Shown here: positions 12,001 to 15,000 of the stretch, in pieces
How positions within the stretch are numbered: the stretch's first letter is position 1
How the letters are laid out: each line of letters opens with the position of its first letter
DNA from: a virus
Reading direction: 5' to 3' (one strand)
UHGV virus genome: UHGV-1727747
DNA length: 17,858 nt
Program-made: the position numbers

Positions 12001-15000
12001 CCGGCTCCAGGATGTCACCATCCCGATCCGGAGAAGGCGTTGACGCAATCCCGGTGATCACCCGTTCATCCTCACTGAAGGATTTCACCGTCAGCAGGGA
12101 ACAGGCCCGTTTAAGAGTCACATCAGCCTCCTGAAAATAAAAAAACCGCCGGAGCGGTTCGTGATGGTTACAGTGTGAACAGGGTTATATGAAAAAAACC
12201 GCATATTCTTTCTTTTTCGGTTCCGGGTTAAGGGACATCAGGGAGACCGCATTGAACAGCGCCATCAGCGGGTCAATTTTTCCCCGTCCACTGGCCTGTT
12301 TGGTGATAAGAATGGCGTTACCTTTAGGCTCCACCCGGGCATTGCCGACACACCAGGCCATCAGGGGCTGGTCACCATGCACCAGCACCCCTTCAGCCAG
12401 TTTGCGCTCGGTGGTTTTAATGGCCCCGCCCAGTTTCCAGCCCTGGCTTATCCCCACCACAATTCCGTCGGGGATCCCGGCTTCCGCCAGTGAATCCAGA
12501 ATCTGCCCCACCCCTGACGGGTCAATACCGATATGGTCCAGTAACTCAGCCTCATGAATGCGACGCACATATTCCGCCACTTCCGCCGTGTCATCCCCGA
12601 CACGCCGGACAATGGTCATATCTCCACAGGCAACAAGATCCTGAAACCGGGACGCCTCGCTCTTCCGTCGGACCACCGCGGTTTCATGCGCCCAGGCATG
12701 GCCCCAGCCCAGCCATTCGCGGGTCTCCCGGTCACGCCCAATCACATACATCCCCAGCAGATCATCCAGCCCTCCGCCGTCAATCCCCACCGTCACCACA
12801 TCAGCACGACGCAGGATATCGTCCAGGCTGATACAACGGCCCTGCTCTTCCCAGAAATCAGCCCCCGCCCAGCGGTCAGAGCGCAGGGCAAGACCAATTT
12901 CCACATTGGCGTGTTTTGACATGAACCCCCGGAATGTCTCTTCACCGGCTTCCCGGGCTTTACGGTACTCCCGGTACAGAAAGGCCTCATCCACTGAATA
13001 GCCGAGATTCGGATTGACCATGGCGAGGTTTTCCATCAGCAGGTTAGTCCCGCTTTCCACCATTTCAGGAGGGTGTTCAAATATCACCGGCAGAAAGTGC
13101 GGATCATGAATTTTGCCGTCGCGCACATCCCGGGCGTACTGCAGTTTCTGTCTGAACACCCCGGCGGGCGGTTCATTCGACTGGGTGGTCGTATACACCA
13201 CAAACCCTTCCGGGCGGGAGGCAAGGCCGCCTATGGCTTCACGTAACATGTCCTCCGCCTTGCACTGCTTGCCAAACAGCCACAACTCATCAATCAGCGT
13301 ACCCACGGACTTGATACCGGACACCGTATTCGGATCGGCTGCCACCACCTTCAGGGTGGTGTCCGTCACTCGGTGGGTGATGGTCCGGATATGGGTCTGT
13401 ACCTGGCAGAGGTCATCCAGATCATCGTCACGTCGTACCATATCCCGGGCAGGGTTGAAGGCGTTGGCCGCCACCTCCACAGTCGGGGCCAGAATCGTGT
13501 AACCCGCCGCCTGCCGCCAGTTCAGTAACAGTGCAGTCATCATGATCCCCGCGGCCAGCGTGGACTTCGAGTTTTTCTTGGGGATAAGGATAAAAACTTC
13601 CTTGATATGGCGTACACCGGTCTGCGCATCGTAGGAGCCAAACAGGGCCGCCACCAGGTCAAACACCCACGGTGCACAGGACTCCCCGAACGTAGGGCTA
13701 CCAGGTGCATCCACAATCCGCAGTTGTTTAAAAATCGCCAGGGCATGTGCGGCCTCGTCCGGATAAATCGGATCCGGAATAATCGACAGCCCCTTTTTCA
13801 GGCGCTCTGCCCAGTCCGGGCAGGCTGTGCTCCATACAGGTATCATCCGTTGCCCTCATTATCGTTATTCACCACCAGTCGGGGGGGCGGTGGCACCGCA
13901 AAACGGTTAGCCGCTTTTTTCGCGGCATCACCTTTTGCCGATTTTTTCCCGGTATCCCCTTTTTTATGGTGCGTGAACTGCGCCAGACGCCAGGCCGCAT
14001 CCAGTGCCAGTTTCGGATCAATGCAGAGGTTTTCCACCAGGATCCGCCCCATGGCTTTCACCGGATCGGGAAGACCATCCTCCATATATTCAATACCAGG
14101 AGACATCACCGCGGACGGTGGCATCTCCAGATTGTTTTCGTCCGGCTGTGGTATTGCAGCCGCCTCACGGCGACGGGGTTTATCCTCCTGCTCTGATTTT
14201 TTCTGCCGGTAAACAGGAACCTCATCCACCTCCACCGTCTCGCATTGTTTACGGGCTATAAACGCAAGCACCTCAGGATCTTTTGCCAGCTGCGAGCCTT
14301 TAACCCTGGCGGTCTTCGCCGAATAACCGGCGGCAATGGCTGACGCTGTTTTGTTTTTCCCGGACATGAGCGCCAGCGCAAATTTTCGTTTTTGCGTTGT
14401 CAGCACAGCCTCCTCCCGGGTCCAGAACGCACTCAGCCGGGTATGGTTCAGCCCATTTTTCCCGGCGTCTCATGCCGCAAATGTTAACTGCTGCCTGGTT
14501 AACATTTGCTGAAAAAGCCTGTTAACATTTTTTCCGCACAACAAACTGAATAATAAAGATAAAAACCGCAAAAATGCCCGGGCAGCCAGTTAACATGTTA
14601 ACTGCCCTGAAACGGGAATTTTTTCTCTGCGTGAGAGGGGGCGCGGTGTCCAAAGCGATCGTTTTTTACGCCGGATGATACCCCCCCCGGGTTGGGTTAC
14701 AGTCCGATGATGTCGTCCTCTCTGCCACTACCTCCGGACACCTCCGGCAGCGTCGGGTCCGGCATACCACTCGCCGCTTCACGAGCAGACTTTTGTCGAT
14801 GGCATTCGGCACAGAGCGTCCAAAGATTCGTCTCCTCATTACCACCACCGAACTGAAGTGCAATTCGGTGATCGAGTTCACTGTCACAGAGGTCAACCAC
14901 ACGACCACAGATACAGCACTGCCCGGCGTCCCTCAGCCAGATATGACGCTTGAGGGAAACACGTGCACTGCCACTGACACGACGCTGCTCCCCCTTCAGA

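Follow-up and report, generated by a model that had tools for sequence, protein, structure and literature searches.

The stretch of viral DNA analysed here (UHGV virus genome UHGV-1727747; 17,858 nucleotides, referred to as the window) carries the genes of a packaging module on its minus strand. An interval of 290 bp, at 14407-14696, was identified as the exact gap between the ORF of an HNH endonuclease (15062..14697, minus strand) and the terS ORF (14406..13843, GTG start). Sequence comparison supported the assignment of this interval as the cos site of a lambdoid E. coli prophage of the BP-4795 / Stx1 type ('Pankowvirus'-like). The features are listed below in the direction of the genes; positions such as +34 are counted from the cut.

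14697..15062, minus strand: HNH endonuclease gene, 121 aa (Pfam HNH, 31.1 bits versus a cutoff of 21.4; PHROG 589)
14681..14688, minus strand: G8 run (C8 on the plus strand), ending 45 nt before the cut
14636..14645, minus strand: putative cohesive-end 10-mer CGCGCCCCCT, 3' overhang, by homology to CGCCCCCCCT of phage Lys8385Vzw
14613..14661, minus strand: conserved cos core CGATCGC..GGACACCGCGCCCCCT/CTCACGCAGAGAAAAAATTCCCG, cosN with flanks; A6 tract at 14619-14624
14587..14604, no strand: 18-bp perfect palindrome CAGTTAACATGTTAACTG, sites 1 and 2, hexamers at +34 and +42
14530..14575, minus strand: AT-rich spacer separating site 2 from site 3; IHF-like match ATTCAGTTTGTTG at 14539-14551
14521..14528, plus strand: site 3, GTTAACAT, hexamer at +110
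14477..14509, no strand: sites 4 and 5, GCAAATGTTAAC-N9-GTTAACATTTGC, hexamers at +133 and +148
13843..14406, minus strand: terS, 187 aa, GTG start (Pfam Terminase_2, 36 bits versus a cutoff of 26.1)
12185..13846, minus strand: terL, 553 aa (Pfam TerL_ATPase and TerL_nuclease)

For Lys8385Vzw, a virion-sequenced Stx1 phage, cos packaging with the 3' cohesive ends CGCCCCCCCT was determined by PhageTerm (PMC7946995). The GenBank record of this phage (MT225100) starts with CTCACGCAGAG and ends with GGACACCGCCCCCCCT, closing on CGCCCCCCCT. With these ends joined, the interval of the window was found to be 96.6% identical over 290 bp, across the junction; all five GTTAACAT repeats are present, TerS is identical at 179 of 187 residues, and the 10-mer differs by one base, being CGCCCCCCCT there and CGCGCCCCCT here. 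The initial annotation had proposed that the region is a cos site and had named a comparison with the cos sequences of related phages as a check, and the identity to the joined, cos-type ends of Lys8385Vzw bears the proposal out. Both the location of cos and the type of its ends are taken from the mapped ends of this phage, and at this level of identity the cut can therefore be placed at 14636-14645 in the window. The sense-strand nick would lie between 14636 and 14635, and the other nick between 14646 and 14645. By inspection of the window, cosN could not be placed in the initial annotation; the sequenced relative made it placeable. The Lys8385Vzw paper itself gives only the cohesive sequence, without the repeats, a cosB or a link to the HNH gene (PMC7946995). 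The matching GenBank phage records are nearly all prophage-ordered, so that the ends of most of them are uninformative; phi330 was opened inside terS, and only Lys8385Vzw was informative.

The core around the cut is nearly invariant in 22 Enterobacterales genomes and in dozens of IMG/VR contigs, and the cut block GGACACCGCGCCCCCT/CTCACGCASAGAAAAAATTCCC is kept upstream of terS in the 22 genomes and in many viral contigs. Also invariant in the relatives is AGAAAAAATTCCC at +10 to +22, which includes an A-tract at +12 to +17. The IMG/VR contigs L134, L163 and L167, and probably L139, begin about 10 nt or less from the homologous cut. These contig ends piling up at the cut, the adjacent HNH gene, the HK97-like TerL and the 3' cohesive ends obtained by PhageTerm for a 96.6%-identical phage stand against headful packaging as in SF6 or SPP1, with the repeats as a pac site. 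Such packaging would be suggested by the TerS family, since Terminase_2 proteins are best known from pac phages, but it is considered extremely improbable here.

In HK97, the HNH protein gp74 stimulates cos cleavage, 10-nt 3' overhangs are formed, and the site bound by TerS lies a short way downstream of the cut (PMC9410871; PMC11331095). The order HNH, cos, terS, terL is common to HK97 and the window, as had been noted before; in the HK97 record the last gene is that of HNH gp74, and the record starts 49 nt before terS. TerL is homologous to HK97 gp2 (BLASTP, 23% identity over about 490 aa, E 2e-11), in both systems TerS would act on the terS side of the cut, and a G8-9 run lies 42-45 nt before the cut (G9 at 42 nt in HK97), with an A/T tract soon after it. 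A run of G6-G9 is kept at the position of the G8 run in all relatives compared, and it may represent a subsite of cos on the last-packaged side. The HNH protein, encoded by the last gene before cos, is presumed to be a cofactor of cos cleavage. HK97 differs in that terS starts 49 nt after the cut, compared to 229 nt here. This longer distance holds the repeats and an AT-rich tract (about 14530-14575), which, like the G/C runs, had been described initially and was found in the interval.

Five exact copies of GTTAACAT are present in the 17.8-kb window, and all of them lie inside 14481-14602, in agreement with the cluster of five reported earlier; shuffled sequences had 0.23 copies on average and never more than 2. 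Three copies are on the plus strand, at 14498, 14521 and 14589, and two on the minus strand, at 14481-14488 and 14595-14602. No further copy with one mismatch was found in the region, except for site 3 overlapping itself. The palindromic core GTTAAC occurs eight times in the window, five times of which in the cos interval. The inverted pair that had been placed at 14480..14507 is genuine and longer, with arms GCAAATGTTAAC (14477-14488) and GTTAACATTTGC (14498-14509) of 12 bp that are 100% complementary and separated by a 9-nt spacer. The perfect 16-bp palindrome given at 14589..14604 is also real, but its start has to be corrected, since the 16-mer occupies 14588-14603 and the full palindrome 18 bp. 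A search for a terminator-like site, suggested by the palindrome and the T-runs, found none in the region; the single promoter-like match lies on the plus strand and is made of the repeats themselves. A 24-aa ORF, MLTGCPGIFAVFIFIIQFVVRKKC, starting at a relic ATG in the palindrome, was set aside as unsupported.

The repeats lie at +34 to +148, on the terS side of the cut, which agrees with the cosB-like location upstream of terS that had been pointed out. In phage lambda, cosB consists of R3-I1-R2-R1 and is bound by gpNu1 and IHF. Here, also, several short repeats of mixed orientation lie between cosN and the gene of the small terminase subunit, with an AT-rich spacer. The lambda system differs by its 12-nt 5' overhangs, by the winged-helix Nu1 protein of another family and by the lack of an HNH partner, and the IHF site in the window is a weak match to the consensus: ATTCAGTTTGTTG has one mismatch to WATCARNNNNTTR, and 22 comparable matches were observed in the window where 15 are expected. 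The length of the spacer between sites 2 and 3 is kept at 66-68 bp among the relatives; a bend in it, or a role of IHF, is speculative.

The hexamer positions of +34, +42, about +110, +133 and +148 are common to seven lineages and agree within 1-2 bp in most of them, though the spacer DNA is only about 59-60% identical. In a diverged lineage, 38 of 38 motif columns were identical, versus 56 of 95 spacer columns (Fisher p = 1.2e-7). Part of the motif conservation is due to coding in most relatives, because ATGTTAAC there encodes the Met-Leu-Thr start of TerS; GTTAA-type repeats between the cut and terS recur even where terS begins ATG CTG ACA. Four copies similar to GTTAACCC are found in L022, and GTTAA-type repeats also in L026, L109 and L163-L165. 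The 18-bp palindrome corresponds by homology to the region in which the ancestral terS started, with the terS ATG inside the palindrome in most relatives, and in short-spacer relatives the palindrome is the sole repeat element. On this basis the three downstream copies could have arisen when the 5' end of the ancestral terS (ATG TTA AC, Met-Leu-Thr) was duplicated, and could persist as neutral relics of an insertion that moved the terS start codon by about 190 bp. However, the likeness between the copies ends after 10-12 bp, the motif columns are perfectly kept while the spacers fall to about 59% identity, positions shift by no more than 1-2 bp in the majority of the seven lineages, all copies switch together, and Pantoea and Morganella, among other lineages, have independent repeat arrays. 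An origin as neutral relics is thus regarded as very unlikely.

The switch of the motif was seen in L086, L090 and L176-L179, where all five sites read ATGTTTAY and both inverted repeats stay symmetrical. Site 3 of the variant lineage is changed to ATGTTTAT, and the arms of sites 4 and 5 both change, symmetrically, to AATGTTTAC...GTAAACATT. The palindrome is retained with altered arms as GGTGGTTAACATGTTAACCACC in L087 and as TATAAACATGTTTATA in L090. When the P0031-type lineage was sought in complete E. coli genomes, no exact match was obtained, and the search led to the related 2012C-4221 prophage. The compensatory change of the arms between lineages in two inverted elements, and the terS start codon at the centre of the palindrome in most relatives, would also be consistent with a function other than protein binding, as hairpins in the RNA of the late transcript or as cruciforms in the DNA, for example, in the control of terS translation or mRNA stability. 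However, the 241-nt sense RNA has an ordinary minimum free energy (z = -1.77), and no terminator-like site came out of the search. Site 3 lies outside any GTTAAC inverted repeat, yet switches its motif with the others, and all five half-sites have one sequence, which pairing alone does not demand. A role as hairpins or cruciforms is therefore considered improbable.

The TerS proteins of the ATGTTTAY-type relatives carry the exchanges A25E, T32S and V35C, and residues 32 and 35 are within the predicted recognition helix (30-41) of a helix-turn-helix (HTH) domain at the N-terminus, comprising residues 1-56. In the AlphaFold model, residues 1-50 have a pLDDT of 93-96, and the best Foldseek match is the DNA-binding domain of SF6 TerS (4ZC3; TM 0.83, rmsd 1.6 A); the TerS proteins of PaP3 and NV1, likewise of the HTH type, were matched as well. 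The PDB profile search returned the TerS proteins of SF6, PaP3/NV1 and Pam5. In the Pfam search, Terminase_2 was the sole match and the gpNu1 family was not found; the comparison with HK97 gp1 gave no similarity (E 0.30). TerS is a Terminase_2 / SF6-type helix-turn-helix protein, unrelated to lambda Nu1 or HK97 gp1. While the N-terminal fold is shared with PaP3, NV1 and SF6, the last of these is a pac phage, and neither an array of several sites at fixed spacing nor an HNH partner was found for these systems by keyword look-up in the respective reports. For PaP3, a model is described in which two neighbouring HTHs grip the outer ends of a cos subsite of roughly 20 bp. An HTH pair of this kind would fit the 18-bp palindrome, which is proposed as the primary TerS site.

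The recognition of the repeats by TerS is suggested by their conservation, their fixed spacing and the concerted switch of five sites linked to changes in the recognition helix, and the GTTAACAT repeats are thus most likely docking sites of the small terminase subunit. The sites and the recognition helix changing together in natural variants are reminiscent of lambda and phage 21. The switched motifs and the altered TerS residues are at most about 300 bp apart, and the association is essentially that of a single lineage, so that it could result from physical linkage without any co-adaptation. The lineages of the two motif types are also divergent in HNH and TerL (83-93% identity), and the repeats could therefore be read by a different member of the complex. 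The region could then be a cos site in which TerS sits on the A-tract after the cut and GTTAACAT is read by the HNH protein or TerL, or else by a nucleoid protein of the host or a late regulator of the phage. The precedent for this is HK97 gp1, whose one binding site, 15 bp long (+15 to +29), contains an A-tract and is recognized with the DNA threaded through the ring (PMC11331095); the invariant AGAAAAAATTCCC lies in a similar place, and its A-tract could serve for recognition in place of the repeats or in addition to them. In contrast to gp1, the TerS protein of the window has a classical exposed HTH like those of SF6, PaP3 and NV1, and short sites in the major groove are what such a fold reads; the residues altered together with the motif are in or beside the recognition helix, and the A-tract block stays unaltered where TerS alters. 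Another reader of the repeats is thus judged unlikely.

In the preferred explanation, to which a probability of about 0.75 is assigned, the locus is an HNH-assisted cos site with a five-site GTTAAC(AT) array as its cosB, docked by TerS. TerL and the adjacent HNH protein would cut concatemeric DNA at the conserved core, yielding the 10-nt 3' overhangs CGCGCCCCCT at 14636-14645. On the side packaged first, a TerS oligomer would dock by its helix-turn-helix domains on the fixed array of five GTTAAC(AT) sites, with the palindromic pair at +34/+42, the 66-68-bp AT-rich spacer, which is possibly bent, and then the sites at +110, +133 and +148. The array would act as cosB, setting TerL and HNH on cosN, and packaging would proceed through terS and terL into the head genes. 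The locus would represent an HK97-style cos with a lambda-like multi-site cosB that is read by another TerS family; the putative array at +34 to +153 replaces the single site of the unrelated gp1.

The kind of cos is already known, while the repeat array appears to be undescribed: in the literature on GTTAAC with small terminase or cos and on BP-4795 cohesive ends, no description of the repeats was found. The cosN and the candidate cosB provide concrete targets for end mapping, cos-plasmid transduction and TerS binding work, in a natural system in which an HTH-type small terminase occurs together with an HK97-like TerL and an HNH nuclease. How HTH-type TerS proteins read DNA is still debated, and the apparent specificity variant, GTTAAC versus GTTTAY, offers a ready-made swap for this question.

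A joint reading of these results, held tentatively and at slightly less than even odds, is that at least two natural packaging-specificity types exist among the E. coli prophages of this group, that the five-site array is a lineage-specific expansion, and that the types may decide cross-packaging between co-resident prophages. The types would share the core of cosN, TerL and HNH but have matched cosB/TerS pairs, in which ATGTTAAC sites would go with a ...KTARVKG... helix and ATGTTTAY sites with ...KSARCKG.... If this is true, a specificity switch like that of lambda and phage 21 would exist in an HNH-dependent, 3'-overhang system. The minimal ancestral cos would have been a single TerS palindrome over the terS start codon, where occupancy by TerS could feed back on terS expression. 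The packaging module was identified in 1282 of 5426 complete E. coli genomes (about a quarter), with roughly 3000 copies of the region in E. coli genomes overall and up to eight in one genome. Many converting phages of the Stx1, Stx2a and Stx2c types carry the module as well, and its cos therefore governs the packaging and transfer of Shiga-toxin genes. If the joint reading is true, the types could set which of the prophages residing together, Stx-converting and defective ones among them, package each other's DNA.

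The putative cos region is the 290-bp gap between the genes for an HNH endonuclease and the small terminase subunit (TerS), which is located in the window as follows:

17385..16852, minus strand, lysozyme
16293..15715, minus strand, Rz
15062..14697, minus strand, HNH endonuclease
14696..14407, gap under study, 290 bp
14406..13843, minus strand, terS, GTG start, Pfam Terminase_2
13846..12185, minus strand, terL (large terminase subunit)
12121..10184, minus strand, prohead-protease/major-capsid fusion, 645 aa (Peptidase_S78 and Phage_capsid)
9972..7387, minus strand, portal protein, 861 aa, long C-terminal extension

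The order of the head genes (7387-12121) is unusual, in that terL is followed by the protease/capsid fusion and the portal gene is found only after that. The window comes from a group of E. coli lambdoid prophages that is very common. A 501-bp probe spanning the gap was searched against phage records and 5426 complete E. coli genomes, and matched 93 phage records, including BP-4795, phage 2851, YYZ-2008, 1717 and many Stx1a, Stx2a and Stx2c converting phages. The probe was also identified in 1282 of the complete genomes, with up to eight copies per genome. Six of the 3015 matching places are plasmid-borne and not chromosomal, so that copies of the cos region exist on plasmids.

Most matching phage records are in prophage order and are uninformative on the ends. 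For Escherichia phage Lys8385Vzw (MT225100), in contrast, terL is located at 790-2448, so that this record must begin within the homologous gap; it starts with CTCACGCAGAGAAAAAATTCCCG and ends with GATCGCTCCGGACACCGCCCCCCCT. DNA of the induced phage was sequenced and analyzed by PhageTerm, and a cos phage with 3' cohesive ends was reported (PMC7946995). Through Lys8385Vzw, the group already has a published cos sequence. The joined ends are identical to the window gap at 280 of 290 aligned positions (96.6%), and the TerS proteins share 179 of 187 residues. Headful packaging is contradicted, being incompatible with these mapped ends. The window counterpart of the cohesive 10-mer is CGCGCCCCCT (minus strand, 14636-14645), which would put the sense-strand nick at 14636/14635, with its partner ten bases further upstream. 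Among E. coli copies, the 10-mer differs by one to two bases (CGCGCCCCCT, CGCCCCCCCT, CGCCCCCCGT, CGCGCCCCGT and CGCGCCCCCC in the window, Lys8385Vzw and loci L087, L088 and L106), implying that co-resident prophages may have slightly different sticky ends. In MT225100, the annotated terminase CDS (185-793) begins at a CTG, 45 nt before the conserved GTG/ATG start; the latter (M-L-T-T-Q-K-R-K-F) is common to all homologues, and the CTG start is probably an annotation artefact.

The cut block was also identified in more distant relatives. By alignment of TerS homologues, 22 Enterobacterales loci were obtained (from Atlantibacter, Kluyvera, Serratia, Kosakonia, Enterobacter, Citrobacter, Phytobacter, Rouxiella, Erwinia, Pantoea, Buttiauxella, Morganella and others), in addition to 80 IMG/VR viral contigs. 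In almost all of these, GGACACCGCGCCCCCT|CTCACGCASAGAAAAAATTCCC is found 5' of terS, and the commonest form of the 10-mer is that of the window. Four metagenomic viral contigs (L134, L163, L167 and probably L139) start no more than about 10 nt from the homologous cut, the pattern expected from physical ends. The inferred cut is preceded by a G8 run (C8 on the plus strand, 14681-14688) that ends at a distance of 45 nt. The run is conserved in all relatives, with a length of G6 to G9 that differs among copies as homopolymers would. In almost all of the loci and contigs, a run of G7 to G9 is found ~45 nt 5' of the cut, and the HNH gene directly precedes it in most of them. A shared cos subsite, on the last-packaged side, is a possible role of the G-run. 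In PPompW prophages of O157-type strains (LC567822, PPompW_132418; L175, 2502-3960), ISEc20 of the IS110 family is inserted exactly at the G-run (window ~14684), and tRNA genes and Q replace the HNH and lysis genes beyond it; these copies thus retain cosN, cosB and terS, while HNH is lost.

The layout is like that of HK97, whose record opens 49 nt before terS and has the HNH gene gp74 as its last gene; a G9 run is located 42 nt before the right end (L173, ~680-690). HK97 has 10-nt 3' overhangs, its cos cleavage is stimulated by gp74, and TerS was shown to bind on the terS side of the cut, from +15 to +29 (PMC9410871, PMC11331095). By this precedent of A-tract recognition, the invariant A-tract block of the window family (+10 to +22; +1 is 14635, the first base past the sense-strand nick) could be a TerS element; however, this block stays constant while TerS changes.

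The initial annotation had described clustered repeats in the gap, and this was borne out: all five copies of GTTAACAT in the window lie within 14481-14602, compared to a mean of 0.23 and a maximum of 2 in shuffled sequences. The GTTAAC core is itself palindromic, with five of its eight occurrences in the window inside the gap, starting at +34, +42, +110, +133 and +148. By a repeat finder, a perfect 18-bp palindrome, CAGTTAACATGTTAACTG, was identified at 14587-14604, and a perfect 12-bp inverted pair at 14477-14488 (GCAAATGTTAAC) and 14498-14509 (GTTAACATTTGC) with a 9-nt spacer. Both elements had been noted before and are real, but the 16-mer placed at 14589 begins one base lower (14588-14603), and the pair extends beyond the 14480..14507 assigned to it. 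An IHF consensus match with one mismatch is present at 14539-14551; matches of this quality are frequent in the window.

Diverged E. coli lineages, recovered via TerS variants, were compared with the window.

Identity to the window at motif and spacer columns
P0038 lineage (L087; TerS 65% identical): motif 38/38, spacer 56/95, Fisher p 1.2e-7
ES5 (L091): motif 38/38, spacer 70/84, Fisher p 0.005

In seven lineages, the hexamer positions from the cut are nearly equal, with spacings of 8, 66-68, 23-24 and 15 bp; L087 and ES5 each have one additional hexamer, splitting one interval. At the palindrome and site 3 (14521-14528), the flanks vary jointly, being ATGTTAACTGGC in Lys8385 and P0020-type phages and, in L087, ATGTTAACCACC; the palindrome is perfect in every flank variant (e.g., GGTGGTTAACATGTTAACCACC). 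In one lineage (L086, the 2012C-4221 prophage L090, and L176-L179), all five sites change from ATGTTAAC to ATGTTTA(C/T), giving the palindrome TATAAACATGTTTATA, site 3 ATGTTTATACCC and the inverted pair AATGTTTAC-N9-GTAAACATT. This five-site switch is the strongest evidence for selection on the sites, as judged from sequence comparison. The perfect motif conservation, the fixed spacing and the concerted switch are at odds with neutral relics of duplication. A role of the two inverted repeats as RNA hairpins is possible; however, the fold of the RNA does not stand out (z = -1.77), a terminator-like site is absent from the region, and site 3 switches its motif although it lies outside any GTTAAC inverted repeat.

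TerS is the likely reader of the repeats. Every TerS of the switched lineage carries A25E, T32S and V35C (...AIEAGYSxKSARCKG...), while all GTTAAC-type TerS examined have ...AI(A/T)AGYSxKTAR(V/I)KG.... The AlphaFold model of the N-terminal domain is confident (pLDDT 93-96, residues 1-50), with helices 4-14, 19-25, 30-41 and 44-56. Helix 30-41 is at the recognition position and thus contains residues 32 and 35, while residue 25 ends the preceding helix. By Foldseek, the best match was the DNA-binding domain of the SF6 small terminase (4ZC3; TM 0.83, rmsd 1.6 A, 30% identity), followed by the PaP3 and NV1 small terminases, in agreement with a PDB sequence profile search. For PaP3, two neighbouring ring HTHs are modelled to grip the outer ends of a ~20-bp cos subsite (PMC7672466), a picture which suits the 18-bp palindrome and the 12+9+12-bp inverted pair. 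However, the switch and the TerS changes are closely linked on the DNA and represent essentially one lineage, and HNH and TerL also diverge between lineages (83-93% identity), so that covariation alone is no proof of TerS as the reader.

In most relatives, Salmonella phage FSL SP-016 among them, the HNH-terS spacer is only ~106 bp, corresponding to window 14589-14696, and the terS ATG sits in the homologous palindrome (GTAAAC-ATG-TTA-ACA). This implied that the window palindrome descends from an ancestral terS start region. In the E. coli lineage of the window, terS starts ~190 bp further downstream (GTG CTG ACA), with three extra sites between. From the relic ATG of the palindrome, a putative hydrophobic ORF of 24 codons, MLTGCPGIFAVFIFIIQFVVRKKC, can be read (14596..14522, minus strand), whose stop is the TAA inside site 3. 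Lineages with the start ATG CTG ACA keep GTTAA-type arrays between the cut and terS, which argues that the repeats are not only a coding by-product; the Pantoea locus L022 has four GTTAACCC-like copies, and further variants occur in L026, L109/L110, L159, L162, L163, L164 and L165. In most relatives (L003, 2480-2640; L006-L027, just upstream of 2001), the terS start codon is at the palindrome centre, ~40 nt past the cut, so that the packaging signal overlaps the terS translation start; autoregulation of terS through this overlap is possible.

The element shares with HK97 the HNH partner, a homologous TerL (23% identity to gp2, E 2e-11) and an inferred 10-nt 3' overhang, but differs in TerS type, sequence comparison having revealed no similarity of TerS to gp1. 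The array resembles the multi-site cosB of lambda, but differs in TerS family and end polarity, and its putative reader is of the HTH type of SF6 and PaP3. In the proposed mechanism, TerS oligomers would bind the palindrome (+32 to +49) as well as the sites further down (+110 to +153). Looping or bending of the conserved AT-rich spacer (66-68 bp) is possible, and participation of IHF is a guess. The TerS complex would bring TerL and HNH to the conserved core for staggered nicks at 14636-14645, and packaging would then proceed from the terS side. The sequence features and how they are conserved have been observed, as have the ends of a near-identical phage; the nick positions in this prophage, the reading of the repeats by TerS and any part played by bending are inferred.

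For the repeat array, its fixed geometry and the variant motif type, no description was found in the searchable literature. The packaging site serves many Stx-converting phages, which gives it practical value, and the two motif types with their TerS proteins provide a natural specificity pair to probe DNA reading by HTH small terminases.
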